The notes: generated by a model not told the origin, from the sequence alone. A stretch of 64,000 nucleotides of DNA from Verrucomicrobiota bacterium (GCA_035358715.1 DAOPPX010000001.1:274412-338411); one strand, 5' to 3'. Positions 622 to 62,615 are shown, counted from the stretch's first letter. Program-made: numbers and translations.

Positions 622-631
622 CCATTCTAGG
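622..631 (-). promoter_or_regulatory. -10-like motif copy CCTAGAATGG
   Basis: Minus strand reads CCTAGAATGG-AGC-ATG. The TAGAAT hexamer ends 5 nt before the exonuclease start codon. Confidence 0.5.
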
Positions 632-872
632 CCCCCAAGGCGCGATACTGGCATCCTGACAGTCTTTTTCGGGCGGCTCCAACAACCCTTCCACGATCAG
701 CGATCAGCTTTGGCTGTGTTCGTTGATGGCGTTATTTCAACGGAACTACAAAAGCGATATGTGAGCGATGCCGCTCCAAAATCGGGGAACAAGGTGGGCA
801 CACCACACCACAGGATTTTAGTGACAGGCGGCTTCCTGACCAAGCCGGGGATTCACCGCGGCTACCCTCCGT

Positions 873-1145
873 TCAAAGCGTCGTGTATCCGGCAGGGGCG
901 CCACCCCAGACAATCGCTGTCCACCAGTAAAAGAGTTGGTTCACGCACTCGACCTTCGCCAGCGGAGCGAGTGGCAGGTAGATTACATTCACTTCGTCGG
1001 GAAGATAGGCCGCATGAAACGCATCGTTGGTCGCCCAGGCAACCGGACCCGTGCTGAGAACGTAGAGCGGCACGCAAATCGCAAACCAGAGCGCCAAGAC
1101 TTGGGTTCGGCGAGAGAAACACGGCCTGTCGAGCGACGGTTTCAT
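873..1145 (-). CDS. small hypothetical membrane protein (90 aa)
   Basis: ORF with hydrophobic helix VLALWFAICVPLYVLSTGPVAW. TATACT lies 7 nt upstream of the ATG. No recognisable family. Confidence 0.4.
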   Translation of the reverse strand: MKPSLDRPCFSRRTQVLALWFAICVPLYVLSTGPVAWATNDAFHAAYLPDEVNVIYLPLAPLAKVECVNQLFYWWTAIVWGGAPAGYTTL

Positions 1146-1251
1146 TGAAACGAGTATAAGTCCGGGTCTGCGGGTAATCCAGATTTCAGCAGGTTCTGGA
1201 CACTCTCCCCACGCTCCGGGGCGACACGGCCAATCCTATCATAAACGGCGC

Positions 1252-1602
1252 TTAAAGCGTTTTCTTTCCGCTGGCTTTTCTCGCCGCCCATCGGGCCTTC
1301 ATGGCTTCTGACCGGGCCTTCCTGAGGGCGGCCGAAATCTTTCGCTTGGGCTTCTCCTCGGAGCCGGGTGCTTTGGCAGCCTTTCTGGCCATCCTCTTTG
1401 CGACCCCAGCTCGGATGTTTGCAAGCCCCCTCGGGCTCAGTTTCCGCCGCTTTCTCCTTCGGGTTCCACGCTCAGCAGACGCAGGCGCTTCTGCAGGGCT
1501 TCCCAGGATTTGCGCCAAATCCTGCTTCAACGATTGAATCCGCTCCTGAATGTCAGCTGCCCGGCGGAGTTGCTGCGGCGTTAGGCTCGAGAGGTCGTTC
1601 AT
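1252..1602 (-). CDS. small basic protein: coiled-coil N-terminus, Lys/Arg-rich tail (possible nucleic-acid binding)
   Basis: 116 aa. LTPQQLRRAADIQERIQSLKQDLAQIL followed by RRRKRRK..KPKRK..KARWAARK. Confidence 0.55.
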   Translation of the reverse strand: MNDLSSLTPQQLRRAADIQERIQSLKQDLAQILGSPAEAPASAERGTRRRKRRKLSPRGLANIRAGVAKRMARKAAKAPGSEEKPKRKISAALRKARSEAMKARWAARKASGKKTL

Positions 1603-1759
1603 GTTGCCGGCAATCTGATTAGGATGGCCAGGAAGTCAAGCCTTACGCATTCCCAGCCGGGGCGGCATGCTCCACAATGCCGACGATAGAAAAGCAACGC
1701 AGATTACTGTAGCTCTGGGCACCCGGTTGCTGGAATCGACATGCAATGGCGTAACGAGG

Positions 1760-2446
1760 TTACTCTTCCAGCTGTTCCTCGTTCTCAGGTACTTCGCCCT
1801 GCGCAAGGTTAGTCTCCACAACATCGGACGGAATGCTGGCCGCCTTGGCTTGGCCGAGCAACCGTTCCAGCTTGATTTTGCCTTCGGCATGGCCCTTTTC
1901 AGGGTCGTCGATGCCGAAAACTTGTTGCGAGACCAGAAGCTTTTGGACCTGGCGGTCCCAGCCGGCGGTCGGGTCAGGTTCGATAAGGCGCAACGCTTCC
2001 GCTGTGACCTGAATGTCGCGCAGGAGTTGGCGCTGCTCGAGCGTGGGCACAAAAAAGCCAGGGTCGCCCGCCACAACCTTTCCGTTTGCGTTTTCAGCCG
2101 CATCAGGATCGGGCGGTATCACTTGGGTTGCGTCTGCTGCTGCTGCCGTCTGCACAGGCGTCCCGCCGTCCTTTTCCGGACCATTAAGTTCCTGGAGATA
2201 CCAGGCCCCTTCGGCAAGGAAGAAATTCTGGATGTGTTCAGCGGCATCGGCACTTATCCCCGTGATCCGGTCGCCGTCGTAAGTGAACGCGTTGGCCAGG
2301 TGCTCCGCCCCCTGGTCATACAAAGCCAGCACTTCGTCTTTGGCGTACACCTCGACCAGCACGAACGGCTCGTTGATCTCGGCGATGGGCTGGCCCGCTT
2401 GGTTGAAGCGGAAGGTGCCGTTGCTGGTCACGATTTTCAGTTGCAT
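1760..2446 (-). CDS. hypothetical protein (228 aa), acidic C-terminus
   Basis: Long ORF with ATG start in the same orientation as its neighbours. No motif recognised. Confidence 0.6.
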   Translation of the reverse strand: MQLKIVTSNGTFRFNQAGQPIAEINEPFVLVEVYAKDEVLALYDQGAEHLANAFTYDGDRITGISADAAEHIQNFFLAEGAWYLQELNGPEKDGGTPVQTAAAADATQVIPPDPDAAENANGKVVAGDPGFFVPTLEQRQLLRDIQVTAEALRLIEPDPTAGWDRQVQKLLVSQQVFGIDDPEKGHAEGKIKLERLLGQAKAASIPSDVVETNLAQGEVPENEEQLEE

Positions 2447-2456: not shown

Positions 2457-2467
2457 CCATTTTAAGG
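2457..2467 (-). promoter_or_regulatory. -10-like motif variant CCTTAAAATGG
   Basis: Minus strand reads CCTTAAAATGG-AAAGGACTTT-ATG. TAAAAT lies 12 nt upstream of the 2446 start. Confidence 0.4.
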
Positions 2468-10844: not shown

Positions 10845-10854
10845 CCTAGAATGG
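10845..10854 (+). promoter_or_regulatory. -10-like motif copy CCTAGAATGG (plus strand)
   Basis: Sense orientation, 128 nt upstream of the pilin ATG at 10983. Confidence 0.4.
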
Positions 10855-15741: not shown

Positions 15742-15751
15742 CCATTGTAGG
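15742..15751 (-). promoter_or_regulatory. -10-like motif copy CCTACAATGG (inside the 3' end of the pilB-like gene)
   Basis: Minus strand reads CCCTACAATGG-AGGA-ATG(15737). Confidence 0.5.
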
Positions 15752-18011: not shown

Positions 18012-18021
18012 CCATTATAGT
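18012..18021 (-). promoter_or_regulatory. -10-like motif variant ACTATAATGG
   Basis: TATAAT lies 13 nt upstream of the pilB-like ATG at 18000. Confidence 0.45.
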
Positions 18022-36727: not shown

Positions 36728-36737
36728 CACATTATAG
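36728..36737 (-). promoter_or_regulatory. -10-like motif variant CTATAATGTG
   Basis: TATAAT in sense orientation upstream of the 36132-36650 gene. Confidence 0.4.
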
Positions 36738-44644: not shown

Positions 44645-44917
44645 TTAGCGCGCTCCCTGAAGCCGTGTTTGGATTTCCCGCTCGTATTCCGGGAAATAGC
44701 GCCCGATCACTGGCAAATCAAACGAAGGCAGGATCGAGGTATTCGGCTCGCGTTCTAGAAGAAACCGGATGCTCTCCTGGAGCAGTTCTTCGGCGGATCT
44801 GCCCCCAGCTAACCGTTCGACATCCTCTTTGGCCACCCGCACGCGATGATGGGTGGTAACGGTGCCCTTGATGCTCACCAGCCATTCGTCGCCCGCGGAA
44901 TGTTTAACTTCGATCAT
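44645..44917 (-). CDS. small conserved-looking hypothetical protein (90 aa)
   Basis: MIEVKHSAGDEWLVSIKG..HRVRVAKEDVERLAGG..ESIRFLLEREPNTSILPSFDLPVIGRYFPEYEREI. It resembles a widespread uncharacterised family I recall only vaguely. Confidence 0.5.
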   Translation of the reverse strand: MIEVKHSAGDEWLVSIKGTVTTHHRVRVAKEDVERLAGGRSAEELLQESIRFLLEREPNTSILPSFDLPVIGRYFPEYEREIQTRLQGAR

Positions 44918-45261
44918 GGCCAGTAAACTGGAATGACGGCATCGAATTTTCAAGCGGCACGCACGCCCGTATTGCCGACGGGGTGTTCGTTCGCGCCGAC
45001 AACACGCTGCGTATCACCAGGGGCCGATTCTGGAAGGCCGCGTCGCCCTCACCTGCAATTTCGGGAACCAAAAGACCACGCCGGGCACCGGCTACCATAT
45101 CTTGGCGATCACGACGAACGCGCCCGTACCCCATCAGCGGGGTAAGCCAACCAAGCCGCTGCCCAAGGAGCGAACCCGGTCTAAGGAAGCGCGGGTGCTC
45201 CGCTCCTAGGTCCCTGGTCACGCACTGCGGCGCTCAGAGGTAGAATGGGGTGCGGCCAAAC

Positions 45262-46911: not shown

Positions 46912-46956
46912 TAGCTTTTGGAATAATCACAGTCGGTTCGCGCACGGTCGCAATTC

Positions 46957-47931
46957 TCAGGTTGTCGCCCGCTTCGCCCTGAGTTTTCCAATGCGCCCTT
47001 CCGACAAAACCGTGTCGTATCGGTGAATGAACTCCAACTGCTTCGCGAGGTTTCCAGAGTAGGTTTTCGTCCAGGGGCCCACCGCTTCGATGACCGCGTT
47101 ATAAAGGGCCTCGAAAGAGAACATTTTCGTCCCGCTACCCCCATCGACGCGAATTTTCTGGGAAGTGGGATCGAAATGGAAAGAAAGTGGAGGTGTCTTG
47201 CCCGCCAACACTTTTCGGGAGTGCGGGTTCGTCATGTGCAAAAGGGAATTCCTTAGCTCCCACAACTCATCCGGGGTCACGCCGACCGCAGCGAGGACCG
47301 CATACTTGGAAAGCCAGGTCACAAAGTTCCCCGCGACATCCCCGAGGTCCAGATAGGCCGCCGAATCAACGAAGGACATGAGGAGCTTCATCGCCGAAAC
47401 GTAATACCGGTGCGCGTAAAGAAGCTTGATGGCTTCGATAAAGTCGTCTCCGAGCAGATCGTCGACATTCAAGCCAGCCGGCGTGAGGTACGCAGACAGA
47501 TAATCGACCCTGCTTACGAGGCCACCAAATTGCCTCGAAAGCACCACCTGAGCAGACTGCGGATCAGCGCAAACCAAGTCCTCGTTCTGCGGCTTTCCGT
47601 CCACGATAATCGTGGTGCAAAATATCGGGTTCTGCGAGGCCTGAACGGCCTCCAGGGGTTCCGCAAAAATATGAAGGGGCTTCCCCGTTCGCGCTAGGTA
47701 CCAGTATGCCTCTAGGGGCAGGCCCTGCGTCGCCGCAATCCCGAGCCAAGCCTTGATATTGGCGACGGGAACGGGATAACGCGGCGCCTTGGTGAAATCT
47801 GCATCAACTCGGCTCTTCAGAGCCGCGATAATTTGGTCGTCGCTGCCCTCCAACTCATGTGCGACGACACCAAGCTCTTTGACGGTGTCGTTTTCCACAT
47901 ACAGGAACAGGTTGACGGCCCTTTCGCTCAT
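46957..47931 (-). CDS. protein with C-terminal HEPN-like domain (Rx4H motif)
   Basis: ELRNSLLHM (R..H codons at 47236-47253) preceded by long helices FIEAIKLLYAHRYYVSAMKLLMSFVDSAAYL. The open frame continues upstream to 48009. See the frameshift finding. Confidence 0.6.
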   Translation of the reverse strand: MSERAVNLFLYVENDTVKELGVVAHELEGSDDQIIAALKSRVDADFTKAPRYPVPVANIKAWLGIAATQGLPLEAYWYLARTGKPLHIFAEPLEAVQASQNPIFCTTIIVDGKPQNEDLVCADPQSAQVVLSRQFGGLVSRVDYLSAYLTPAGLNVDDLLGDDFIEAIKLLYAHRYYVSAMKLLMSFVDSAAYLDLGDVAGNFVTWLSKYAVLAAVGVTPDELWELRNSLLHMTNPHSRKVLAGKTPPLSFHFDPTSQKIRVDGGSGTKMFSFEALYNAVIEAVGPWTKTYSGNLAKQLEFIHRYDTVLSEGRIGKLRAKRATT

Positions 47932-47969
47932 GGAAGTAGTTAAGGGGACCGCCGAAAGTTCGGCAAGTG

Positions 47970-48164
47970 TCAACTGGGCCCTTTGGGAATGTAGCCAATA
48001 CTTCCCCAATAGGAGATGCCGCCTCTAATTCTCTCGACCTTTAGCAATTGTTCCCACTCCACCTGATCCACAGTTGAGATTCGTCCATTGACGAGTGTGT
48101 TGATAGCGGAATCCGCAACCATTGCGATTCCTGCTTCAGATAAATCTGCAAGTAATAAGGACAT
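47970..48164 (-). CDS. 64-aa ORF, possibly the displaced N-terminus of the HEPN-like gene
   Basis: ATG start, MSLLLADLSEAGIAMVADSAINT..GGISYWGSIGYIPKGPS*. It overlaps the 5' part of the downstream open frame by 40 nt in another frame. Confidence 0.35.
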   Translation of the reverse strand: MSLLLADLSEAGIAMVADSAINTLVNGRISTVDQVEWEQLLKVERIRGGISYWGSIGYIPKGPS

Positions 48165-48280
48165 ACAATTTGCCGCTTTCCGGTGACAAAAGCAAAAAAG
48201 CGTTGCGTCTCGGAGTCAAGAGCGCGATGAGCCGATACAGCTCAGGTCGCGGCCATTTTCGTGACCGATATTATACTACC

Positions 48281-48300
48281 GGCGGGGTATTATTCCCGCC
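48281..48300 (-). terminator. hairpin downstream of the caspase-helicase gene, followed by a TATAAT box (48270-48275, minus strand)
   Basis: GGCGGG-8 nt-CCCGCC. There is no U-tract, so the terminator function is uncertain. Confidence 0.3.
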
Positions 48301-48461
48301 AGTTTACGGGCTGAATTATGGGCATCGGAGAAGCATTTTACCAGGTCTGCAGGAACCTTGCCATCAGCAACAGGGCGTCGATCTCGGTATCGCCACAAGG
48401 GCATGTCCCACGAGCTTGAAAAATCGAAAAATCAACGTTCTCAAGCTACCACAGGCAACTT

Positions 48462-51400
48462 TCATTGAGGATCCGGCGGTGTCGGCATCGGCAAAGCATC
48501 ACTAAGTGCGGGCCTGGCTGCCTTAAGCTTGTCGATTGCGTGTCTCACAAGCTGCCTTTTCGCGTCACTATTTATAACACGAACAAACGCTTCATCATCA
48601 AGCCCCTCGAAAGCCTCCACCGTTGTTAAGCCCGCACGCTTGAGAGCCAGATAATCTCCACGCTCTAATCCCCGCTTCACCTGTCTTGCCAAGTAAATCA
48701 TGTCACTGTGAATACCCAATTCCAGCCGCGTATTGAGATCATCAAGCTCACAGCTCGATCCGCGACCGTCGCTCGAAACCAGCGTACCGATCCGAGCTAC
48801 GACCTCGATGAGATCGCGGGTGCGCTCAGCTGAAGCGCGAATCGGACCGGCGGCATTATCTGCTGGCAGATGCTGCAGGAGCGAAGCCTCCATACGATTT
48901 AGTTCAACCCCTTCAATCCACATCAAAACCGCGGAGAGGCGCTTGCATCGTGCCGTATGGCTCGGATCGTCGGTCGCCGCAAATTCCACAAGAAGCGAAT
49001 AGGGCAAGCGTTGCTCCTGGATCGCCCCCTGCCACCGCTGACGTTCCTTAATCGATTTCTTATGAACGGGGAAAATGACGTCGTCCAACTCCACCGTCAC
49101 CTGTGCAGCCGCGAGGAGGACTCTTTCAACAAGCTCAGCGCTGGGCAGACCACGGAGCGCTCGTGCGACTCGTGTCACGCTTTCCACTTGGATACCAAGC
49201 TCACCGGCCACTTTACCGAGCTGAGTCAGCCGATAGCGGCCTTCGACTTGCTCCACAAGCCCCGCTCCACCTAACTGCGCGACCGCGCTTGAGATTGCCT
49301 GAACACTGAAGGCCTGGCCCTGCTGGTGGTGCGCGAATGTCGATTGGATGAAATCGACGAGCTCCTGCTCGGAAAGACTATTCACCTTCGAGGCACTTGC
49401 GGTCGCGAGCACTCGGCAAATAAGGGAGAGGGGATCATGGTCCGAAAAGCGCGAGACCAGCGCCTCAGGTTTTCCCGCCACATAGTTCGTCCACAGCTGG
49501 TAAGCATCGGACGGGGTCGGAGCAATCAAGAAGGATTTGCCTTTCGGCGTAAAGCCAAGCCGGCCGGCGCGCCCAACCATGTTTTTGTATTCGGCCACGC
49601 TATACGGCGAGTCAGGATGCTCCAGGCCAGCAATCACCACCGACCAGGCCGGAGTATTGACCCCCATGGCAAGCGTCGTCGTCGCCACCAGCACTTTGAG
49701 AGAGCTGTTCGGATCCCTGAACGTGGCCTCGATTGCTTGTCGTTCTTCGCGGTCAAGATCCGCATTATGGAAGGCAACACCGTGCTGCAAACATCCGCGC
49801 AACTGCGTCGAGGCGACAGATGGATCACCTGCGGGGAGTTGAGCCAAGGTTTCGGTCGCCGCATGAAGGCCTAAACTGTTCTTCAAATATTCCGCAGTTG
49901 CTCGGACAATCGGTTTCGTTTCTCGAAACACGATGACCTTCTCCCCCGCGCCTACAAGCTGCCGCACCAACGGGATGATGATGTCTTGCGATGTGCCCTT
50001 GCGGAATTCCGGGCGCACGTAATTATTGAGCTGCTGCTCTGTGCCATCTGCCGCGATGTAACGGAACGTCCCGCTCATATCGAGCAGACCCTCTTCCAGC
50101 GGAACCGGGCGTTTCTCACTGCGCAACAGCCGGGCATCCAGCCAGGACTCAAAACCGTTGGTGTCCCCGATAACGGCGGAAAGCGCGATTATCTGCGGTT
50201 CGACACCCAACATTCTTTGCGACTTCAATAGCGTGAGCAGAAATTCAAGATTGGCTCCGCGGTTCAGGTCCGTGATCATCTGCACTTCGTCGACCACCAC
50301 GACGCCAACCTGGCGCATGATATGTGGTGCGACCAGCGCGAGCGCAGCAAACCGTTCGTACGTCAGCAACGCGATATCGAACTTACCACGGAGCAGCGCA
50401 TTGTTGTCGTCGGAAATCTCGCCGGTAGATCGGATGATACGCACACCGAACGGCCCATATTTTGACGTGAACTCAGCGTACTTATCGTTCACGAGCGCCC
50501 GCAGCGGCAACAGTATGTAGCTGCGTTCCCCTTTCAGGTTACGGTACAACGCTGCCAATTCGCCGATCATCGTCTTTCCCGATGACGTTGGCGCAGACAC
50601 AACGAGATGCTGACCTTCAAACAAGCCCGCCTTGTTGATGGCCTCCTGCTGCAATTCGTTGAGGGACGGAATCGCACCACTCCAAATACCGATCAATGGC
50701 TGGGGAAACCCAAATCCGGTAAGATCCTTGATGTTCGAGCTGACGGAAATTGGAGCTGGGTCGGGGAAAAACCGTCTAAAAATCGCGCCTGGGATCAACA
50801 CTGGAAACAGCAACTCGCCTTCAATCACGCCCTTTACGGTTGGCTCTTGTTCGTGGCGAATCTGACGAGCGGCGTTTACCACCGACCGGGTCACGAACTC
50901 AATCAATGATAAGAGCGGAATCTTGCCAGCCTTGACGATTTCCGGGGCACCTTTGAACGCCTGACATATAAAGAAGGTAAACAAGCTGTGCCCGCGGCGC
51001 CGATCTTCCATTGCTTCCTGCTTCGCTGTGGCAGCGGTGAAAATGAGGCGTCCCTTGCCGCTAATCTTACTCAGCAAGGCATCCGCCGAAGCCGTATCCT
51101 TCGTGGCCGTAGGAGCATGGAAGACCTTGGCGCCAGCCCCCCCGGCGAAGCAACAGTCCAAGAGGAGCACGAGATTTGACACGGGAATACGCGAAAAAAG
51201 ATTCGTGAGTTCATCCAGATGAATTGTGGTTGAATCGAGTGCGAGCGGGTCGGCTTCGTGTGAGATGAGGTGATGGGAGTCCGAGCCATGGCCAGAAAAC
51301 CCAATCACAACGATATCATCCGGTTTTGCTTCTTGAAGCTCCACAAGTGCCTTGAGAATCGCCGATTTGGTAGCCTGCTCGTTTGTAAGAAGAACGGATT

Positions 51401-51527
51401 CCGAGCTGCCAAATGCGTCACAAAAAAGTCCGTGGAGTGCCTGGGCGTCGCGAACCGAACACGAGAGGTTTGAAATTAGCGGGGATCGATACCGATCAAT
51501 GCCGATGAATAGGCTTTTGAATGACAT
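48462..51527 (-). CDS. caspase-like (peptidase C14) domain fused to a Hel308/Ski2-type DEAD/DEAH helicase
   Basis: From ATG 51527. Caspase His/Cys dyad IGFSGHG (His80) and LLLDCCFAGG (Cys125/126). Helicase motifs VVSAPTSSGKT, VVVDEVQMI, LVATTTLAMGVNTPA, MVGRAGRLG. C-terminal WH/ratchet/HhH-like region. An alternative TTG start at 51566 lies 1 nt after the ImmA stop. Confidence 0.85.
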   Translation of the reverse strand: MSFKSLFIGIDRYRSPLISNLSCSVRDAQALHGLFCDAFGSSESVLLTNEQATKSAILKALVELQEAKPDDIVVIGFSGHGSDSHHLISHEADPLALDSTTIHLDELTNLFSRIPVSNLVLLLDCCFAGGAGAKVFHAPTATKDTASADALLSKISGKGRLIFTAATAKQEAMEDRRRGHSLFTFFICQAFKGAPEIVKAGKIPLLSLIEFVTRSVVNAARQIRHEQEPTVKGVIEGELLFPVLIPGAIFRRFFPDPAPISVSSNIKDLTGFGFPQPLIGIWSGAIPSLNELQQEAINKAGLFEGQHLVVSAPTSSGKTMIGELAALYRNLKGERSYILLPLRALVNDKYAEFTSKYGPFGVRIIRSTGEISDDNNALLRGKFDIALLTYERFAALALVAPHIMRQVGVVVVDEVQMITDLNRGANLEFLLTLLKSQRMLGVEPQIIALSAVIGDTNGFESWLDARLLRSEKRPVPLEEGLLDMSGTFRYIAADGTEQQLNNYVRPEFRKGTSQDIIIPLVRQLVGAGEKVIVFRETKPIVRATAEYLKNSLGLHAATETLAQLPAGDPSVASTQLRGCLQHGVAFHNADLDREERQAIEATFRDPNSSLKVLVATTTLAMGVNTPAWSVVIAGLEHPDSPYSVAEYKNMVGRAGRLGFTPKGKSFLIAPTPSDAYQLWTNYVAGKPEALVSRFSDHDPLSLICRVLATASASKVNSLSEQELVDFIQSTFAHHQQGQAFSVQAISSAVAQLGGAGLVEQVEGRYRLTQLGKVAGELGIQVESVTRVARALRGLPSAELVERVLLAAAQVTVELDDVIFPVHKKSIKERQRWQGAIQEQRLPYSLLVEFAATDDPSHTARCKRLSAVLMWIEGVELNRMEASLLQHLPADNAAGPIRASAERTRDLIEVVARIGTLVSSDGRGSSCELDDLNTRLELGIHSDMIYLARQVKRGLERGDYLALKRAGLTTVEAFEGLDDEAFVRVINSDAKRQLVRHAIDKLKAARPALSDALPMPTPPDPQ

Positions 51528-51567
51528 TTGTCGCTGCTGATTCTCGTGGGGTTTGCAGAAATTCAAG

Positions 51568-52503
51568 TCAGATTGCGATGACGGGCACCGTTACAGCCCG
51601 TTTCCCAAGGTGCCTTGCAAATGTGAGGGCTTCATGGCCGTTGAAAAAGGTTTCAAAGGCGAAGACGTGCTCGTCTCCATTGTCATCGGCTAGAACGATC
51701 TCGCTTTCGCCCAAGGGCCCACCTCTTTGAGATCCACAGTATGAAACGATGCAGTCGAAAATCTCGTGCTCGCTCGCTTGGCCGAACCGAGCGGCGAAAG
51801 CCTCGGATTGAATAAAATGACGACAGGGATTCGCCCCATCGAAATCGTCTGGCCGGCGACGGATGTGAGGATGGTCGGAAATGACGCCTAACAGGGGTTG
51901 CTCGGAACCGAGAAGCTCAACTGCGCGCCAGAGGGTGCAAGTTTGGGTGTTACCAAAGGATTTCGCATACTTTTGCAGAGTCCGAAAACCCAGCGGCGAA
52001 CTCCGAGCCTCCTCGACGAATCGGTCGCGCAGAAAAATTAGCTGACCGGCACCATAGTTGGCTTCAGTTTCGATTTTCGCCCGACAGGAGGCGGTTGGGG
52101 TTATCTCATTGTCGCCCAGCAGGACTGGGTGGTGCCAGAGGAGCAATTGGTGGATGGTTTCGTGTGCCTCAAGCCAGCGATGTTTCAGTTTAGGCACCTC
52201 CTCGTCGATCAGAATGCGTTTCAGATCCGGAGCACACAGCGCGCGGAGCTTAAATTTCTGTATGGCTTCGCGGATGAACATCGGACGGGCAAAGGATTGC
52301 ATCACGCCGACGCGGATCTTGTGGACAGCACGCGCCAGCAGACCGGCCTCTTCACGTTGAAAGTAGCCAAGATCAATTTTCAGCCAGTCACGCACCACCT
52401 CAATCCGAAGAGGCGGCTCCGGGCGACCAATATCATCGAGAAGGCGATCTACTCGGCGATCGATTTTCTGGCGGACGTGTGAAGCAAGAATGAGGCTTTT
52501 CAT
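51568..52503 (-). CDS. ImmA/IrrE-family (COG2856) zinc metallopeptidase
   Basis: HETIHQLLLWH (HExxH) and downstream ETEANYGAGQLIFL. ATGA overlap with the XRE gene. Confidence 0.85.
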   Translation of the reverse strand: MKSLILASHVRQKIDRRVDRLLDDIGRPEPPLRIEVVRDWLKIDLGYFQREEAGLLARAVHKIRVGVMQSFARPMFIREAIQKFKLRALCAPDLKRILIDEEVPKLKHRWLEAHETIHQLLLWHHPVLLGDNEITPTASCRAKIETEANYGAGQLIFLRDRFVEEARSSPLGFRTLQKYAKSFGNTQTCTLWRAVELLGSEQPLLGVISDHPHIRRRPDDFDGANPCRHFIQSEAFAARFGQASEHEIFDCIVSYCGSQRGGPLGESEIVLADDNGDEHVFAFETFFNGHEALTFARHLGKRAVTVPVIAI

Positions 52504-52979
52504 TCCTTGCCACGTTCATCGTCCAGGAGCGTGGCGATATAAGCCTCGAGCGCGTGCTGCTCTTCTGGGGAAAGCGGCCCGGTCGGTTTCGCATCGGTGG
52601 CAAAGCGGACAGCCTCTTTGTTTAGGGGAAGCTTTTTAGCAACGGCAAGACCGGCAGCCTGCATCATCTTTGTAACTGAAAGGCCAAAAACCTGAGCTAG
52701 CCCGTAGACCGTGCTCGGTTCGGGTTCGTGGTATGGGTCGTCTTCGATAGCTTGCAGTTCCTCGGTTGCCGCTTCAGCTCGTGCTGCGAGTTGTTCGATT
52801 GAAAGCCCCAGTTTCCTGCGTAACAGGAGGACAAGTCTTCCAAATGTGAGGTGGGTGAATACCGAGATCATCGGCGTGGCAGACTGAATGGCGGTGGGCG
52901 GACTGCCCGCACCAACTTCGCAGTCGCCTTCCAGTTTGGCTGCGCGGATGAACCAATCTTTGGGCAGGTTCAGTTTCAT
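52500..52979 (-). CDS. XRE-family helix-turn-helix regulator
   Basis: FGRLVLLLRRKLGLSIEQLAARAEAATEELQAIEDD..VYGLAQVFGLSV. ATGA overlap with the GNAT gene. Confidence 0.8.
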   Translation of the reverse strand: MKLNLPKDWFIRAAKLEGDCEVGAGSPPTAIQSATPMISVFTHLTFGRLVLLLRRKLGLSIEQLAARAEAATEELQAIEDDPYHEPEPSTVYGLAQVFGLSVTKMMQAAGLAVAKKLPLNKEAVRFATDAKPTGPLSPEEQHALEAYIATLLDDERGKE

Positions 52980-53578
52980 TTTGTCAGAGGTTTTGCGAGA
53001 AAGGCGTTTGCCTGCTCGCTGGTGAATTCATAATACGTTAGATTCTGTTTCTGTGGGTCGGGTCCGATGATTGTCATGCCGCAGTTCTTCTCATAAAATC
53101 TCCTTGCACCTGGGAGGGAGTGCAGGCCGATTCGCCCTTTGAAGCCCTCGTCGATGCTGAGCTGCACGGCAGCCGCTATTAATGTTCCGCCAACCGCCTT
53201 AAACCGCTTTGGTGTCTGAATCGCAGAACGATTCCAAGGGGCGACGGCAAGATAATCCACATACAGGACTGAACGGGTGCCTTTGTTGGAGAGGCTTGCA
53301 AGATCAACGAGCATGGCGCCCTGGAGGCCGCCTTCGCAGGTAATGCAAAAACCGCGCTGGCCAAACGTCTGATGCGCGTGAGAAAGTTTATCCCGCCAAT
53401 TCCAGTGCCAATCTTCCGGCCACCTGTCTCGCGGCGTGGTGCGCTTCACTTGCTCAACGACCGGCGCCCAGGTTGCTTCTAGTTGCTCCAAGTGCGGTTT
53501 GTCCAGGTCGTCCAGGAGCACTGCTTCGACGAGCGATTCGTCAGCGCCGCGGACGAGGTAAATGACTGACGCTTCCAT
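52976..53578 (-). CDS. GNAT-family acetyltransferase (toxin-like partner of the RHH gene)
   Basis: VLYVDYLAVAPWNR..RFKAVGGTLIAAAVQLSIDEGFKGRIGLHSLPGARRFYEKNCGM. This shows the GNAT beta4-alpha3 / AcCoA-loop pattern. Confidence 0.7.
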   Translation of the reverse strand: MEASVIYLVRGADESLVEAVLLDDLDKPHLEQLEATWAPVVEQVKRTTPRDRWPEDWHWNWRDKLSHAHQTFGQRGFCITCEGGLQGAMLVDLASLSNKGTRSVLYVDYLAVAPWNRSAIQTPKRFKAVGGTLIAAAVQLSIDEGFKGRIGLHSLPGARRFYEKNCGMTIIGPDPQKQNLTYYEFTSEQANAFLAKPLTK

Positions 53579-53582
53579 GGTT

Positions 53583-53795
53583 TCAGACGAGCATGAGCTC
53601 AGACTTAACTTTATTCACGTCGTCTTCGATGAAGAGCTTTTTCCCCTCGCGCATTCGCTGATCCACTAATTGGTAGAGGCGCAGGGCTTGTCGGATAATC
53701 GCGGTCTTGTTCAGATCCTTTTGGCCAGCGAGTGCCTCCAGCGCATCCATCTCAGCGTCGGTCAGGTTCAGTGTCATGGTGCGTTTAGTACTCAT
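53583..53795 (-). CDS. ribbon-helix-helix (CopG/Arc-type) protein
   Basis: MTLNLTDAEMDALEALAGQKDLNKTAIIRQALRLYQ gives a beta-strand plus two helices. 70 aa, 4 nt upstream of the GNAT gene. Confidence 0.75.
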   Translation of the reverse strand: MSTKRTMTLNLTDAEMDALEALAGQKDLNKTAIIRQALRLYQLVDQRMREGKKLFIEDDVNKVKSELMLV

Positions 53796-53805
53796 ATCTC
53801 AACAC

Positions 53806-53835
53806 AAAATAGCCACAAAACATATATGCAGTCAA
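53806..53835 (-). promoter_or_regulatory. sigma70-like promoter candidate for the RHH-led operon
   Basis: Minus strand reads TTGACT-18 nt-TATTTT, 10 nt before the ATG at 53795. The intergenic region is AT-rich. Confidence 0.4.
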
Positions 53836-53853
53836 CATATTTTAATTAAATAT

Positions 53854-53882
53854 TTGACGCATGGCCATTATTGGTATATTCT
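53854..53882 (+). promoter_or_regulatory. sigma70-like promoter candidate for the Bil-type operon
   Basis: TTGACG-15 nt-TATATT (or 17 nt-TATTCT), ending 8-10 nt before the ATG at 53890. Confidence 0.4.
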
Positions 53883-53889
53883 GTGGCCA

Positions 53890-54174
53890 ATGAATACATA
53901 TTCATCAATTACTGAGGGCCACGGCAGCGCCGTGGCGGAACCTGACAACAACGCTGGCCAGAAGTTCTTCGTGAACATCGAAGGCCAGGAATATCCGTGG
54001 GATAAACCCACGATCACCGTCCCGGAAATCCGGCAGCTGGGGAATCTCCCCGCCGACCAGCCGGTAATTGAAGAGGACGCGGAAGGCCGTGAGCGCACGC
54101 TCGCGGAAAACGAAGTGGTAACCATTAAACCCGGCCATCGACACGGCCGCGCACCTAAGTACAAGCGGGGTTAG
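53890..54174 (+). CDS. bilA: ubiquitin-like (multiubiquitin/beta-grasp) protein ending in Gly
   Basis: From the internal ATG: KFFVNIEGQEYPWDKPTITVPEIRQLGNLP..LAENEVVTIKPGHRHGRAPKYKRG*. A C-terminal Gly is immediately followed by the stop codon. Confidence 0.75.
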   Translation: MNTYSSITEGHGSAVAEPDNNAGQKFFVNIEGQEYPWDKPTITVPEIRQLGNLPADQPVIEEDAEGRERTLAENEVVTIKPGHRHGRAPKYKRG

Positions 54175-54176
54175 CT

Positions 54177-54587
54177 ATGCACGAGCGGGTTCGAGAAGAA
54201 ACCGAGTGGCTTAGAGCGCAATTCCCCTACTTGCGGCATGGGGACCAGCTTGACTGGGTCTTAATCCCGGAGCTGGCCCTCCCGCCAGGGCGATTCAATA
54301 AGGTGAGCACCAAGCTGCTGTTCCGAATCCCGGTAGGCTACCCACAGACCGGCCCGGACAACTTTTTTGTGGATGGTGACCTGCGGCTTAAGGACGGTTC
54401 GACTCCGCAGGCGTTCAATGTTGGGCCCCAATCGAGCAGTGGTCCTGCGCCAATCGAAGGAAGTTGGGGCTGGTTTTCATGGCATCCTCAGGCTTGGCGT
54501 CCAGCAGCGACGATCGAAGGTGGCGATAATCTCAAAGGGTTCATTCGGAGTATTAACCTCTGTTTGCGCGGAGAGGAGTCGGCATGA
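54177..54587 (+). CDS. bilB: prokaryotic E2-like protein (E2 family E-like)
   Basis: LLFRIPVGYPQTGPDNFFVD..GSWGWFSWHP. Position between the Ubl and JAB genes. The protein has a single Cys (INLCLRG). Confidence 0.65.
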   Translation: MHERVREETEWLRAQFPYLRHGDQLDWVLIPELALPPGRFNKVSTKLLFRIPVGYPQTGPDNFFVDGDLRLKDGSTPQAFNVGPQSSSGPAPIEGSWGWFSWHPQAWRPAATIEGGDNLKGFIRSINLCLRGEESA

Positions 54588-55132
54588 ACAATCACATTGT
54601 CATCCCTTCCCGCATGGTCCAAGCGTTGAGGGAACACTTCTTCAAGAACGAGCTTGAGCAGGGAGCGTTCTTATTCGCCCAAGTGTCGCAAGAGGGCGTG
54701 GATTTGACTCTCTTGGCTGCCGATTACTATCTGGTTCCTGCACGAGGCTGGGCAGTGCAAATGGAGGTTTACCTGGAAATGAGGGATTCCGAACGCGGCA
54801 AGATCATGAAGTTGGCCCGGGAAAAGAATCTGTGCGCGATTGACTGCCACTCACACCCGCACGCGGGTGACGATGTGTGGTTCTCGCCAAGTGACGTCGT
54901 CGGCATCAGCGATTTTGCGGAGTACGCAAAGTGGAAACTCGACCGCAAGCCTTTCGCGGCGATGGTCTGGGGCGAGGAGTCGGTAGACGCGGTCCTGTGG
55001 CATGGAGATTTCACATCTGCTGAACGGGTAAGGGCCGTGACGGTTGCTGGAAACCCGAATCAGACAATTATCCCAACGGGCTCATGGTTTTGTGGGCCGA
55101 GGGGGAAAAACAGATTTAAATATTATGAATAA
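54584..55132 (+). CDS. bilC: JAB/MPN (JAMM) metalloisopeptidase
   Basis: ELEQGAFLFA (Glu) and CHSHPHAGDDVWFSPSD (HxH..SxxD). ATGA overlap with the E2 gene. Confidence 0.85.
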   Translation: MNNHIVIPSRMVQALREHFFKNELEQGAFLFAQVSQEGVDLTLLAADYYLVPARGWAVQMEVYLEMRDSERGKIMKLAREKNLCAIDCHSHPHAGDDVWFSPSDVVGISDFAEYAKWKLDRKPFAAMVWGEESVDAVLWHGDFTSAERVRAVTVAGNPNQTIIPTGSWFCGPRGKNRFKYYE

Positions 55133-56003
55133 CAGTCGTTTCGCTCGGCAAGTCCTCATGTTTGGTGAGGAAGGACAGAGAAAAATTGAAACAGAAAGGG
55201 TCGGGGTAGTCGGCGCGGGCGGGCTTGGCTCTCAAATGGGCCAGGCGCTCGCGTATGCTGGCGTCCTTAACTATGGCGTAATTGACGACGACGTTCTCGA
55301 CGAAACCAACATGAACCGGGAGGCTGGCGGTTTTCCATCCGATGTCGGCCGTCTCAAAGTTGAGGTCGTGAGAGAACACATCCTCAAGATTATCCCCGAA
55401 GCAAAAGTGAAAGCGATTCCATGCAATCTCAGGACGCGGGAGGCAATTGAGTGTCTGATCGGATGCTCGGCGATTTTTGGATGCCTTGATCACGATGGGC
55501 CTCGGTTGGTGCTAACGGAGCTCGCATCAGCTTACCGGGTTCCGCTTTTCGATGTGGCGACCGAAATTTTTCCGGAAATGGCCGGGCAACCCTTCGACTT
55601 TGGTGGACGTGTCGTCGTGGCAAGGCCGGGAGATTATTGTCTCCTTTGTGCCGACCAACTAGACCGTGATCTCGCGAAGGAGGAGTTGGAAACACCTGAA
55701 ATACGTGCCGCTCGTCTGAAACATGGATACGGGCTCGGGAGTGAAACGCCTGCCCCGGCGGTTTTCACTCTGAATGGGGTTCTCGCGAATCTCGCGGTGA
55801 TGGAGTTCTTGGTGATGGTAACAGGTATCCGGGAGCCCGCCCGCCGGCTGACGTATAAGGGAATGCGAGGCGTGGTGACAAACAGCACCGATCGGGGCAG
55901 GGAAGACTGCTTCACCTGCAAGTGCCTCTGTGGGCAGCGCGAAAAAGCGAACATCTGGCGCTATTTGCTGCCACAGGCAGCCGGGAGGAGTCTGACAGAG
56001 TGA
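55125..56003 (+). CDS. bilD: ThiF/MoeB-type E1-like adenylating enzyme
   Basis: From ATG 55125: RFARQVLMFGEEGQRKIETERVGVVGAGGLGSQMGQALAYAGV..GVIDDDVLDETNMNR. Cys pairs CLLC and CFTCKC. 8-nt overlap with the JAB gene. Confidence 0.85.
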   Translation: MNNSRFARQVLMFGEEGQRKIETERVGVVGAGGLGSQMGQALAYAGVLNYGVIDDDVLDETNMNREAGGFPSDVGRLKVEVVREHILKIIPEAKVKAIPCNLRTREAIECLIGCSAIFGCLDHDGPRLVLTELASAYRVPLFDVATEIFPEMAGQPFDFGGRVVVARPGDYCLLCADQLDRDLAKEELETPEIRAARLKHGYGLGSETPAPAVFTLNGVLANLAVMEFLVMVTGIREPARRLTYKGMRGVVTNSTDRGREDCFTCKCLCGQREKANIWRYLLPQAAGRSLTE

Positions 56004-56078
56004 GAGGTGGCCAGCCCACCGCTTGTTCCACGAAGAAATGGAATCAGCGTCTGGAATCCGTTCGTCTTGCACCGGAAA

Positions 56079-56291
56079 CTAATCGAGACCTTTCAGGTGC
56101 GTGGCTAGTGCGTTGGGACGAGGTAATCGAGCAGTGCGGATGTGCCGCGATTTGCATACTTGTCCAGTCAGGAGGCAGGCCTGAATCTTAGCAGACCATT
56201 GGAGAAGGGGCATAACCTGGGTTACCCGGGCCCTCGAGATTCCTTCCCAGGCAGCGATTCTGGCCTTCGTCAGCCGGGTACCGGATCGCAA
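56079..56291 (-). pseudogene. fragment of a small HTH DNA-binding gene
   Basis: TKARIAAWEGISRARVTQVMPLLQWSAKIQ resembles the ..EGISRARVTQ..LL.L.P.IQ.. HTH proteins often found near recombinases (recalled from memory). The N-terminus appears to be missing. Confidence 0.3.
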
Positions 56292-56305
56292 TCCTGCCTG
56301 CGTGG

Positions 56306-56508
56306 ATGAGATTTGCCGGGAAGCTGCTGCCCGTATCTTATGTGTTCGAAGGGCTGAGAGCGCTTATCGCCGGGGGCGCCGTACCCGGAACCTCGGCTTG
56401 GGCCTGGCCGTGGCGTATGTGCTTTTGGCGTGTTGGTTCTTCACACGCGTTAATCGAAACGCCGTCCGAACCGTCCTCGCGCGCAATAGCGCCGAGAACC
56501 TGAGCTGA
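56306..56508 (+). pseudogene. frameshifted C-terminal remnant of an ABC-2-type transporter permease
   Basis: Frame 1 reads KLLPVSYVFEGLRALIAGG. After a shift near 56390 frame 2 reads LGLGLAVAYVLLACWFFTRV. No upstream part of the gene is present. Confidence 0.35.
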
Positions 56509-56646
56509 GCCCGGACAGTTGCTTTGATGTCGGCCTGGGATCAGCGACTTCGCCTGCCTCGACTGCTTTGACATGCCCCCAACTGGTTTGAATGTGTGAT
56601 GCACAGAGCTTTGGTTTAATATCCCGGTTCGATACATCGTCGCGAA

Positions 56647-57126
56647 ATGAAGAAAACTGAATTGATAAAGCACATTATCGGCAGCCTGACCAAAAGTCTC
56701 GAGGTTCTGGAAAAGGCCGCCCGAGCCTCGCATGAGGAAGCCACCCACGAGAGCAGCAGGGCGGAGAGCAAGTACGACACTCGCGGGCTCGAAGCTGCCT
56801 ATCTCGCCGGCGGTCAGGCCAGACAAGCGAAGGAAATCCTGGACTCCATCAAGGCTTACGAAGCGCTAGCGACCAGGGACTTCGCCCCCGGCGAGCCGAT
56901 TGAGTTGACCGCCCTGGTGGAACTGGATGCCGAAGGCATACATTCAGCCTATTTTATCGGGCCGAGGAACGGCGGCTTGGAAATCAAGCATCGGCGTAAG
57001 GAGATCATGGTGATCACGCCTCAGTCGCCGCTGGGTCAAACCTTAATAGGCAGGAAAGCGGGCCAGCGTTGGGCGGCCAAGCTTGGCGGTTCGACCGTGA
57101 AATATCATATTGTCTCGGTTTCGTGA
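56647..57126 (+). CDS. GreA/GreB-family-like protein (coiled-coil N-domain plus Gre C-terminal-like domain)
   Basis: ESKYDTRGLEAAYLAGGQARQ in the N-terminal hairpin. C-terminal VITPQSPLGQTLIGRKAGQ..VKYHIVSV. Confidence 0.7.
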   Translation: MKKTELIKHIIGSLTKSLEVLEKAARASHEEATHESSRAESKYDTRGLEAAYLAGGQARQAKEILDSIKAYEALATRDFAPGEPIELTALVELDAEGIHSAYFIGPRNGGLEIKHRRKEIMVITPQSPLGQTLIGRKAGQRWAAKLGGSTVKYHIVSVS

Positions 57127-57457
57127 TTAGCCCGCCGCATCGACTAACGCAAAGGTGGCGCGGGTCGCGTAAAACCATGCGCGAGTCAGCGGCGAGGGCG
57201 AGGAATTTGGTTGAGGGTGCTGGCGGTGCACCCGTTTGGCTACCGACCGCCGCGCGGCGGCGGCGCGCGAGATTTGGACCGGACCATTGTTGATCTTAAA
57301 CCACGAGCTTGAACGACCAATGAACTTCACGAGCCACCTGACACGGTCTGAACGCATTGAGAGAATTGGGCAGATTTTGGCGAAGGGCGTAGGCCTCCTT
57401 CTGGCGAGGAAAGCACAGGAAGAAAGACTCGCTGAATCACCTGCCTCAACCCGTGCT

Positions 57458-57557
57458 GCCGATCGGTCGCCTTGCGCTCGGTGACATCCGTGTCGGCGCC
57501 GCGGTAGCCGAGGAGTTTCCCGGCTGGATCCACCACCGGGCTGCCGCTCGGCTCCCC
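57458..57557 (-). pseudogene. about 35-aa remnant of a PAS-domain sensor gene
   Basis: GEPSGSPVVDPAGKLLGYRGADTDVTERKA is the typical end of a PAS domain (..G..G...DITERK). No kinase or output domain follows. Confidence 0.3.
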
Positions 57558-57655
57558 GGGAGGTGGTGCGCGAATCAATCAAACGAAGTGGCCTCTTATG
57601 GTCAGCGCAATCGAATCGGCGTTTCGATTCCTGTCCGCCTTTGCTCAGGGATCCG

Positions 57656-58053: not shown

Positions 58054-58063
58054 CCATTGTAGG
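58054..58063 (-). promoter_or_regulatory. -10-like motif copy CCTACAATGG
   Basis: Sense orientation, 64 nt upstream of the virB2-like ATG. Confidence 0.45.
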
Positions 58064-60915: not shown

Positions 60916-60917
60916 GG

Positions 60918-61832
60918 CTATTGGTCGAGAATGTTGTTGCGAGCCCGGTCGACTGTTTCCTGGTCGAATTGCTTCTGGGCGGCTTCATTTCTTTTGGCAG
61001 CCCGGAGCGTTTGCCGGCTGTTGATCACCTCGCGCAACTCATTGATCGCCCGAGTCTTCCCTGCCTCTTGGGCGGTGCGCAGACCGGCACGGTCGAGCAT
61101 GGTCCCGTCATTGGTCAGCGCGCCATAGAAGAGCTGGTTCTGCGCCTGGATGTCCTGTGAGTTCTGGCGGGCTTGTTCCGCGCTCAGCATGGCAGCCTGC
61201 GTGAGCGGGTCAATGCGTCCGGTGAGCGTAGGCAGGGCTGGGGCAGGGATTGGCGTTTCATTCAGCCGGACGTGATAAGAACTGTCGCCGTAAGCCTGCT
61301 CATATTCCGCCTCTCGGGTCTGCTGGTCTGCTTTCTCGGTTTCCAGATCCTGGATGGCGGTGATGGCGTCCTCCTGCTGTTCCTGGTTTTTGAGCATGTT
61401 CACCGCCACTTGGCTGCCCGGGTAGATCATGCCGCTGGTCCCTTCGAGCCCGCGGATCAACTGTGCGGTGATCGTGTTGTAGAGCGGGTTATCGATGCAG
61501 CCGAACGAAGTGGGCCAGCACGGAATGTTGGCCCAAGGCGGCGCAATATAGGCCCATAACGCGTAGGCGGCGATGCTGATCAGCGGGATGTCGGTCAGCT
61601 GCATGTTTCCGACCTGCGCCTCGAATATCTGCCGCGCTTGCGAGGTGGAAATGACCGTGGCCAGGGCTGGTTGCTCTTCCAGTTGCGCCCGGTAGCCCGC
61701 AATGGGGGCCAGCATCTCCTGGTTCTGCTGGGGGTTCTGCGCCGTCTGACTTGAGCCCGCGGGCGAGCTGCTTTGAGCCAGGCCAGTGCCGGGCAAGAGC
61801 GCCGATAGGCCTATTGCGATGATTCGTTTCAT
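60918..61832 (-). CDS. secreted hypothetical protein (possible second VirB5-like component)
   Basis: From ATG 61832: MKRIIAIGLSALLPGTGLAQ signal. Gln-rich coiled-coil C-terminus. Confidence 0.5.
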   Translation of the reverse strand: MKRIIAIGLSALLPGTGLAQSSSPAGSSQTAQNPQQNQEMLAPIAGYRAQLEEQPALATVISTSQARQIFEAQVGNMQLTDIPLISIAAYALWAYIAPPWANIPCWPTSFGCIDNPLYNTITAQLIRGLEGTSGMIYPGSQVAVNMLKNQEQQEDAITAIQDLETEKADQQTREAEYEQAYGDSSYHVRLNETPIPAPALPTLTGRIDPLTQAAMLSAEQARQNSQDIQAQNQLFYGALTNDGTMLDRAGLRTAQEAGKTRAINELREVINSRQTLRAAKRNEAAQKQFDQETVDRARNNILDQ

Positions 61833-61836
61833 TTGT

Positions 61837-62580
61837 TCAATCCGTCGGAATGTTGGACATGGCCTTGCGGATGATCTGCTGCTCCCGCTGCTTCTTGAGC
61901 TGCTGCTCTCGTTGGGCGGCCTCGGCGACGCTGGCATCGTTGACGTCGTTTTTCATTTTGTCCAGCAAGGCGGTTTGCTGGTAGAGGAGGGCGTTTTGAG
62001 CGCCGGCCTGCTCAATAAGAGTGCCATCCTGTGTATCATCGAGGACCGATTGCGACTGGGCCAGGACGTTGCTGCCGTAACTGCGGGAAGCGCTGGCGTT
62101 ATCGATGATCCGTGAATTGTAGCCACCCAGCGCCATACGCTGTTCCCAGTCGGTCGCCGTTCCGTTGCTGACCCTGGTCAGGGCGGTCTCCCAGCGCTGT
62201 TCCATCGAAGTCACATCGCGTTGGCCGTAAGCCATCTGGTTGGCCCAATAGACGATGTTGTTGGTGAAGTTCTGAATCGGCGCCGCGCGGCCGGAGAAGA
62301 AATCGGTGCTGGCCAGCCGCGTGAATGAATCAAGCCACGACTGCGCCTTGGCCTTAAGCATGTCAATATTGCCCAGCGCCGTTTGATACGTTTTCACCTC
62401 CTGGTTGTAGATCTGAGTGGCCTGGCCGAGGATGCCCTTGGAGGTGTCCAACTGCTGCTGCATCGTTTGGTACTGCTGATAAAGCTGCTCGAGCGAGCTG
62501 ACATCAATGGTCGGAATCTGGGCCAAAGCCGAGCCGAGCAGGCTGACACCAGCGATCAGCGTAAAAATGGTCTTTTTCAT
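61837..62580 (-). CDS. TrbJ/VirB5-like secreted T4SS protein
   Basis: MKKTIFTLIAGVSLLGSALAQIPTIDVSSLEQLYQQYQTMQQQLD. The signal followed by (I/V)P(T/V)xD and a Gln-rich helix matches the TrbJ pattern (recalled from memory). Confidence 0.6.
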   Translation of the reverse strand: MKKTIFTLIAGVSLLGSALAQIPTIDVSSLEQLYQQYQTMQQQLDTSKGILGQATQIYNQEVKTYQTALGNIDMLKAKAQSWLDSFTRLASTDFFSGRAAPIQNFTNNIVYWANQMAYGQRDVTSMEQRWETALTRVSNGTATDWEQRMALGGYNSRIIDNASASRSYGSNVLAQSQSVLDDTQDGTLIEQAGAQNALLYQQTALLDKMKNDVNDASVAEAAQREQQLKKQREQQIIRKAMSNIPTD

Positions 62581-62605
62581 AGATCGTAATTGTTCAGTCC
62601 TTCTT

Positions 62606-62615
62606 CCAGTATAGG
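62606..62615 (-). promoter_or_regulatory. -10-like motif variant CCTATACTGG
   Basis: Sense orientation, 27 nt upstream of the trbJ-like ATG. Confidence 0.4.

Follow-up and report, generated by a model that had tools for sequence, protein, structure and literature searches.

Leaderless genes, in which a -10 element directly abuts the open reading frame (ORF), have been described in Deinococcus-Thermus (PMC12340547, PMC4007540) and in Mycobacterium (PMC3898074). A computational survey of TA-led genes by Zheng et al. 2011 found the same signal in many bacteria (PMC3160421), and in Deinococcus a -10 motif abutting the ORF was found experimentally to be sufficient as the promoter of leaderless genes (PMC12340547). 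Additionally, a GGGA element strengthens -10 binding via sigma region 1.2 and supports promoters that are independent of a -35 (PMC3526302 and references there). Here we describe a recurrent box, CCTANAATGG, in a 64-kb window of a Verrucomicrobiota assembly (the whole stretch of DNA analyzed, G000:C1:274412-338411; coordinates without a prefix are window positions), which lies within an integrated element of about 360 kb. The box is probably the -10 of a sigma-70-type promoter that works independently of a -35, gives leaderless mRNAs and is specific to the family of this element.

The exact box occurs eight times in the window (622-, 10845+, 15742-, 31245-, 31333+, 33289-, 43879- and 58054-, the sign giving the strand), compared with 0.18 expected and a maximum of 1 in 100 dinucleotide-preserving shuffles of the window. 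Allowing one mismatch gives 18 matches against 8.45 expected; the five one-mismatch matches that are not among the 14 copies discussed next (14515, 20784, 27556, 44180 and 53865) are intragenic or have no start downstream, and these are background. A first-pass annotation had listed 14 boxes by eye and suggested a scan against shuffled controls. In that scan the box stands far above the shuffles, and all 14 copies are present, as the box or a close variant, at the coordinate and strand given for them (Table 1). Each copy had also been described as in sense orientation just upstream of an ORF start. The orientation is correct at 14 of 14. Adjacency fails at 10845, 36728, 58054 and 62606, which head leaders of about 120, 75, 40 and 20 nucleotides (nt), and is loose at 2457 and 18012, where the spacers are 12-13 nt; the box at 33289 heads an 11-codon mini-ORF and not rnhB directly. 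The hexamer does lie 5-8 nt from the ATG, exactly as quoted, in the six cases singled out (622, 15742, 26146, 31245, 31333 and 43879). Two copies had been placed within or overlapping upstream coding sequence; the one at 26146 does overlap, the TAG within CCTATAATAG being the stop codon of the upstream MshEN-domain gene, whereas the one at 15742 sits in a 40-nt gap and is not intragenic.

A logo was built from 30 sites on contig C1, for which the sole selection criteria were a TAnAAT hexamer and, 4-9 nt later, a start that opens a long ORF. The consensus is G(-16) n C(-14) C(-13) TAnAAT G(-6) G(-5) A(-4), with (G) in the next position. T-12, A-11 and T-7 are invariant, with A-9 and A-8, while any base can occupy the third position of the hexamer (T 12, C 10, G 5, A 3), which also varies between orthologues, which bears out the earlier view of the core as a -10 hexamer. 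No -35 hexamer had been seen by eye and none emerges here: TTGACA-like hexamers at 16-19 nt are found at 0 of the 30 sites and the information profile of the -35 zone is flat. Conserved instead, as had been proposed, are the flanks, with C-14 at 22 sites, C-13 at 19, G-6 at 25 and G-5 at 28, and beyond these G-16 at 21, A-4 at 21 and G-3 at 15; position -15 is C 14, A 8, G 4 and T 4. About 17 nt are conserved around the box and the outer flanks are unrelated between sites. Spacers from hexamer to start run from 4 to 9 nt, mostly 5-8, and TAnAAT-N3-8-ATG occurs 40 times on C1 where control spacers of 16-30 predict about 9. Together, these invariant positions, the variable third base and a constant spacing to a purine start point to a -10 of the sigma-70 family with initiation at or next to the start codon, and we infer that transcription starts at the box. 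The ATG inside the box (AATGG) was considered as a real start and rejected, as its frame agrees with that of the ORF in no more than about one third of cases, which is the chance level.

The element that carries the boxes is bounded by 23-bp direct repeats at C1:6342-6364 and C1:366521-366543, which are the 3' end of tRNA-Gly(GCC). It is an integrated element of about 360 kb (C1:6342-366543) at tRNA-Gly(GCC) and contains the whole window. C1 measures 402 kb (7% of the 5.54-Mb assembly). Its 36 kb past the tRNA share the tetranucleotide profile of the other contigs (r = 0.993), and the element interior gives 0.88-0.96. Because all C1 boxes fall between 57 and 366 kb, within the attachment repeats, they belong to the integrated element. 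A 445-aa integrase-like gene at C1:364981-366318 adjoins the tRNA and is itself led by a box; it has no Pfam match and is assigned from its position and visible motifs only. The window encodes a 5'-3' exonuclease, DnaN, SNF2 and DEAD helicases, PolA, RNase HII and SbcCD-like proteins, together with pilus and type IV secretion functions (a secretin, PilB- and PilT-type ATPases, several prepilins and VirB4). Elsewhere C1 carries helicases, a DUF3854/Toprim protein, a response regulator and a sigma factor. We take the element to be a giant integrative conjugative element. Host RpoD has its nearest relatives almost entirely in Verrucomicrobiota (Verrucomicrobiia, Limisphaerales, Pedosphaera), and the host chromosome appears to be that of a Limisphaerales-like member of the phylum from soil or peat. 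We rejected the possibility that C1 is a mis-binned plasmid from a host that uses the box generally, given its attachment repeats at tRNA-Gly and its flank of host-like composition. Within the element, the first-pass annotation had seen no box before any gene of the 43.9-57.6 kb island, and a good box is indeed missing there.

Whether the box was generic to the host or peculiar to the element had been left as a comparison to make, and it comes out as element-specific. Main weight was placed on tests that combine pattern searches with ORFs and are independent of called starts. Of 33 exact boxes genome-wide, 22 are on C1; an ATG or GTG within 0-7 nt that opens an ORF of at least 80 codons follows 16 of these 22 but only 1 of the 11 elsewhere, the one on contig C7. 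The pattern TAnAAT[GA]G-N1-6-[AG]TG has 32 of its 51 occurrences on C1 and 19 in the other 5.14 Mb, a density excess of about 20-fold. In an unbiased comparison of upstream with coding regions, run separately for C1 and host, the top enriched upstream hexamers were TAGAAT, TAAAAT and TATAAT on C1 and TAGGTT, TAGAGT and TAGTTT in the host. A host set was drawn from TAnnnT hexamers before 1767 called starts, of which 116 have one at 5-8 nt, with a peak at 6 nt. These host hexamers tend to TAnnCT (C-8 in 54 of 116) and show no preference for CC or GG. In the subset of 83 host sites at 6-7 nt, a TTGACA-like -35 is present in a rough 40%, which sets the C1 boxes, with none in 30, apart from the canonical -35/-10 arrangement of sigma-70 promoters. 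The box is therefore specific to the element and not generic to the host.

Two observations on other contigs may be recorded here. Host contigs such as C2, C3, C4 and C6 have TTGACA-N17-TAnnCT-N6-ATG, a leaderless-type arrangement, before some 4-6% of genes. C7 (74.8 kb, GC 0.595) is element-like in composition (r = 0.987-0.989 to C1) and not host-like, and its exact box at 74637(-) has an ATG 7 nt on that opens a 429-codon ORF; C7 may be a second element or a further piece of the C1 element.

The box is also conserved in relatives. In a related metagenome-assembled genome (MAG), G001, C12:10-118 kb is collinear with C1:251-357 kb at 73-88% nucleotide identity, and 24 candidate boxes have orthologous DNA in both. 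Across these, 198 of 216 box positions (92%) are identical; identity is 65% over the 38 nt 5' of the box and 79% over the 40 nt 3' of it. The 20 intergenic boxes account for 174 identities in 180 positions (by our own subtraction of the per-site rows), and conservation is absent from four intragenic look-alikes. Between the two genomes the box is under purifying selection. Spacing from hexamer to start stays within 5-9 nt in the orthologues despite indels (for VirB4, 8 nt vs 5 nt), as leaderless initiation requires. In G001, boxes cluster on C12, C14 and C23 in stretches with homology to the C1 element, while an isolated G001 match lies outside such DNA. The three contigs of this 11.4-Mb MAG, 600-890 kb in length, hold different parts of the C1 element, which could reflect several related elements, rearrangement or a mixed bin.

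Scanning of metagenome and genome contigs for relatives of VirB4 gave 32 metagenome loci at 58-97% amino acid identity, some on contigs of 320 and 411 kb, and none in a search of 400 genomes of the phylum. Among the 31 listed relatives, full-length or truncated, all 31 have TAnAAT or TATACT 5-12 nt (mostly 5-10 nt) before the conserved VirB4 ATG. Where full length they are 70-97% identical in amino acid sequence, and they represent at least five unrelated kinds of upstream sequence. In one lineage at about 76% identity (L017-L023) the flanking CC and GG are no longer well kept and TAnAAT has a GTTGCAT -35 placed 16 nt before it, which indicates that the promoter dialect evolves within the element family.

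Compared with the systems outlined above, the box resembles leaderless and TA-led genes in placing TAnnnT 5-8 nt before an ATG or GTG, with a -35 often dispensable and, as judged by E. coli rules that may not be those of this host, apparently no Shine-Dalgarno sequence at a usable distance. It differs from those of Deinococcus-Thermus and Mycobacterium, where the arrangement is a genome-wide habit of the host read by RpoD, in being stricter (TAnAAT with CC and GG) and confined to a mobile element; it differs also from the leaderless-type promoters of its own host, which use a -35 and TAnnCT. Promoters with a GGGA or G-rich discriminator share with it G-6 and G-5 immediately after the -10 (Feklistov et al. 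2006; Barinova et al. 2008; PMC3526302); they work without a -35, as the box, which has none in its sequence, would do. In contrast to the GGGA discriminator, the box, known here from sequence alone, has GGA(G), with A in the third position, and an upstream CC. Like extended -10 (TGn) promoters it has a short extension 5' of the hexamer in place of the missing -35, although the TG at -15/-14 is lacking and G-16, C-14 and C-13 are found instead.

We propose that a holoenzyme of the sigma-70 family would recognize and melt the near-perfect -10, with the flanks supplying the binding energy that normally comes from a -35. The GG(A/G) would act like the GGGA discriminator contact of sigma region 1.2, and the upstream CC like the extended -10 contact of region 3.0. 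Transcription beginning about 7 nt downstream would, in roughly two thirds of cases, have its first nucleotide at the A or G of the start codon or 1-2 nt ahead of it. The mRNAs from those boxes would be leaderless and translated without a Shine-Dalgarno sequence, and the remaining boxes would head leaders of 20-125 nt.

Which sigma factor reads the box is a separate question, for which the element offers a candidate. The product of a sigma-70-family gene at C1:217720-218547 (-) is 275 aa long and has regions 1.2, 2 and 4 as well as a weak region 3. Its family is tight, with about 22 clusters at 60-98% identity followed by a gap down to RpoD-like proteins at 40%. The neighborhood of the gene is kept on contigs of up to 342 kb, and both neighbors have leaderless-type TAnAAT or TATACT boxes, also in relatives with no more than 61-66% sigma identity; the element sigma and VirB4 occur together in assembly WBZT01. 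Compared with primary sigmas, the family replaces the PVHMIE of region 3.0 by PIRR(A/S)x, has lost W433 and carries R436E and Q589K, while the FSTYA motif, W434 and Q437 are retained. Two arginines at positions 455/456, the reading head for the extended -10, would fit reading of the G:C-rich CC extension. A box, TCTATAATGGAG, near C1:219140 heads the gene upstream of the sigma gene on the same strand, which would provide positive feedback should the box be the target of the element sigma. No ordinary -35 was identified for the sigma gene itself.

Sigma factors of phages and mobile elements with private promoters offer one parallel, among them T4 gp55, whose late promoters (TATAAATA) have no -35, and SPO1 gp28. 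The element sigma resembles these in co-occurring with a motif restricted to its element, and T4 recognition likewise involves only the -10. It differs in being a compact relative of primary sigmas (regions 1.2, 2 and 4) whose putative box is near the housekeeping consensus. RpoS-type selectivity offers a second parallel. Becker and Hengge-Aronis reportedly found in 2001 that RpoS favors C at -13, read by the residue at the E458 position in region 3.0, and here too a C directly 5' of the -10 would discriminate between related sigmas. Unlike RpoS, the element sigma has no lysine at that position and has the two arginines at 455/456, and both -14 and -13 are C.

Two further features of the sigma region were observed. 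In the stretch that replaces region 3, the family (P0001-P0022) has conserved cysteines, in PAC[ED], E[ED]RC and AEC, that could form a metal or redox site. A conserved box-led gene of 85-90 aa, beginning MKF and with one hydrophobic helix (C1:219399-219656 (+); about 8900-9250 (-) on L053, L054 and L056), is always transcribed divergently and is separated from the sigma gene by the gene preceding the latter; its product might be a partner of the sigma.

The reader of the boxes may be this 275-aa sigma, the candidate we slightly favor over host RpoD alone, all other readings taken together being unlikely. The boxes would then form a private circuit with positive feedback that switches the whole element on. 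In its favor, the gene belongs to the conserved backbone of the element family, its product retains region 1.2 and the region 2 core, and the invariant PIRR includes arginines that are plausible readers of the G:C pairs at -14/-13. The neighboring genes are box-led in relatives and the box dialect is absent from the host.

Several points weigh against this account or against the promoter reading as a whole. The sigma is linked to the box by co-occurrence in the sequence; it has lost W433 and keeps an intact, near-canonical region 4.2, yet no -35 is found on C1. The fading flanks and the GTTGCAT -35 of the lineage at about 76% VirB4 identity suggest that recognition rules drift. TAnAAT is preferred by any primary sigma. 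The box is common to all functional classes, from integrase and replication to pili and type IV secretion, with no sign of a temporal cascade. As to the promoter reading, gene starts came from a home-made caller and many are imprecise; position profiles based on it are weak and the host percentages are rough. Lastly, GGAG(G) is a Shine-Dalgarno core and the host 16S rRNA ends in CCUCC, so a translational role in read-through transcripts is possible.

That the boxes are read only by host RpoD, the element sigma doing something else, is a serious possibility that we rank second; TAnAAT with GG and CC would then simply be what a promoter without a -35 needs. TAnAAT with a G-rich discriminator is optimal for primary sigmas (PMC3526302), and in Deinococcus RpoD suffices for ORF-adjacent -10 promoters that have no -35 (PMC12340547). 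Leaderless-type promoters exist in the host too, and the element sigma retains region 4.2 although C1 shows no -35. The assembly contains two full-length RpoD-type genes (C28:~44.2-45.9 kb and C15:~5.6-7.2 kb), nearly identical in regions 2-4; their regions 2.4, 3.0 and 4.2 match what we take to be the primary-sigma consensus, with canonical residues for reading the -10, the extended -10 and the -35. They could be paralogues, a strain mixture or contamination (reported contamination 1.84%). Against reading by RpoD alone, apart from the element-like copy on C7 none of the 10 exact boxes in the other 5.1 Mb precedes the start of a long ORF within 7 nt, host sites lack the CC and GG preference, and CC at -14/-13 differs from the TG read by the host's region 3.0 of the H455/E458 type.

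It is very unlikely that the box is a translation signal, that is, an A/U-rich enhancer with a GGAG Shine-Dalgarno sequence on transcripts begun further upstream. GGAG does follow the hexamer at most sites, complementing the CCUCC of the host, and two boxes (15742 and 26146) lie within operons. The GGAG ends 0-4 nt before the ATG, below functional spacing by E. coli rules, which are perhaps not those of this host, and a TAnAAT with a free third position is the signature of a sigma factor and not of a ribosome. Moreover, GG and hexamer are equally conserved at boxes with leaders of 20-125 nt; since the GG is retained there without a following start, it is a promoter feature and not merely a short-spaced Shine-Dalgarno sequence, and the latter was rejected as its main role.

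We give equally little credence to an operator for a DNA-binding regulator of the element that overlaps its promoters, in the manner of KorA/KorB on IncP plasmids. In favor of such a regulator, backbone genes of every functional class have a single short motif in common, and they do so on a conjugative element; however, the 10-mer is asymmetric, with neither dyad symmetry nor direct-repeat half-sites, its central base is free, the positions that never vary coincide exactly with those of a -10, and the start codon lies at a fixed distance that matches promoter geometry. An operator or a dispersed repeat was set aside on the asymmetry of the 10-mer, the mere 17 or so conserved nt and the unrelated flanks. 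A chance motif or part of a dispersed repeat, suggested by nothing but the shortness of the motif, is refuted by shuffles that never gave more than one copy, by the unrelated flanks and by purifying selection.

Table 1. Boxes, box variants and the cargo island in the window.
Feature	Positions	Strand	Context
Box CCTAGAATGG	622..631	-	3 nt, then ATG (618) of 5'-3' exonuclease gene; hexamer-ATG spacer 5 nt; G001:C12 has CCTAAAATGGAGCATG
Box variant CTTAAAATGG	2457..2466	-	12 nt before ATG (2446) of 228-aa gene; orthologue has CCTAAAATGG
Box CCTAGAATGG	10845..10854	+	Heads conserved leader of ~120-125 nt, then three-gene pilin operon 10983-12223
Box CCTACAATGG	15742..15751	-	6-nt spacer to secretin ATG (15737); in 40-nt gap after PilB-like stop (15778)
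Box variant ACTATAATGG	18012..18021	-	13 nt before ATG (18000) of PilB/GspE-type ATPase
Box variant CCTATAATAG	26146..26155	-	6-nt spacer to PilT-like ATG (26141); orthologue has GCTATAATGG
Box CCTACAATGG	31245..31254	-	ATGs at 3 nt and 6 nt, gene 30446-31243; divergent pair with 31333 box
Box CCTAAAATGG	31333..31342	+	7-nt spacer to ATG (31348) of prepilin-type gene; heads three-gene pilin operon 31348-32601
Box CCTACAATGG	33289..33298	-	5-nt spacer to 11-codon mini-ORF (33285-33250)
Box variant CTATAATGTG	36728..36737	-	~75 nt 5' of ATG of 173-aa gene 36132-36650
Box variant CATATAATGG	36855..36864	+	Before weakly coding ORF ending 37364, start not clear-cut; no orthologous DNA in relative
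Box CCTATAATGG	43879..43888	-	8-nt spacer to VirB4 ATG (43872)
Box CCTACAATGG	58054..58063	-	Heads leader of ~40-55 nt; small membrane-protein gene with signal peptide; ATG 58006 or 57991
Box variant CCTATACTGG	62606..62615	-	27 nt before ATG (62580) of 247-aa gene
Cargo island	43900..57600	.	Lower GC, no box; different DNA in closest relative

Some of these sites have features of their own. The leader headed by the box at 10845 (10855-10985) is about 90% conserved in G001 over the aligned stretch and folds better than shuffles (z = -2.2); it has no Rfam match, and Rfam is empty across the whole window. The spacing at 2457 implies what would be a very short leader, and the box at 15742 is a putative operon-internal promoter. 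The divergent pair at 31245 and 31333 has the same arrangement, 87 nt apart, in G001:C12. At the 33289 box, the TGA of the mini-ORF overlaps the ATG (33253) of the RNase HII gene as ATGA, and the mini-ORF is kept in the relative despite an in-frame 3-nt indel; termination and reinitiation may couple the leadered RNase HII gene to the leaderless mini-ORF. The membrane protein behind the 58054 box is VirB2/TrbC-like by eye only and has no Pfam match. Its leader contains a hairpin (58020-58045, -; GGCCTT...AAGGCC) whose stem is kept and loop changed in G001:C12, although the fold alone is not significant (z = -1.0). Elsewhere in the element, ARAGORN calls an unusually long tRNA-Phe(GAA) of 97 nt at C1:257888-257984, which may contain an intron or be a false call.

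Leaderless promoters in bacteria are already known. What appears to be new is a strict dialect without a -35 that is confined to a family of giant integrative conjugative elements, in a host with a different leaderless style, and an unusual primary-like sigma as the candidate reader. In a limited full-text literature search we found no description of leaderless-type promoters in Verrucomicrobiota, the sole match being a start-site database paper. In practice, the rule G-n-CC-TAnAAT-GGA, then 3-6 nt, then ATG or GTG would fix the true start codons for dozens of genes in a family of elements, 300-400 kb in size, that come from peat and soil metagenomes; the same rule marks element DNA inside host contigs.

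One cell would hold two promoter dialects, that of the host and that of the element, both of leaderless type, which makes it a tractable case for asking how mobile DNA shields its gene expression or makes it portable. Should the box be read by the element sigma, the two form a natural orthogonal sigma/promoter pair with recognition of the -10 only. It is conceivable, if somewhat short of probable, that the element has an orthogonal expression system, in which a compact sigma (regions 1.2, 2 and 4, with PIRR) reads GnCC-TAnAAT-GGA promoters that have no -35 and that the host does not use, the sigma itself lying behind such a promoter and most products being translated from mRNAs that have no leader. 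In that case the replication, pilus and conjugation genes, about 360 kb in all, could be switched on as a block, little tied to the promoter and ribosome-binding conventions of the host.

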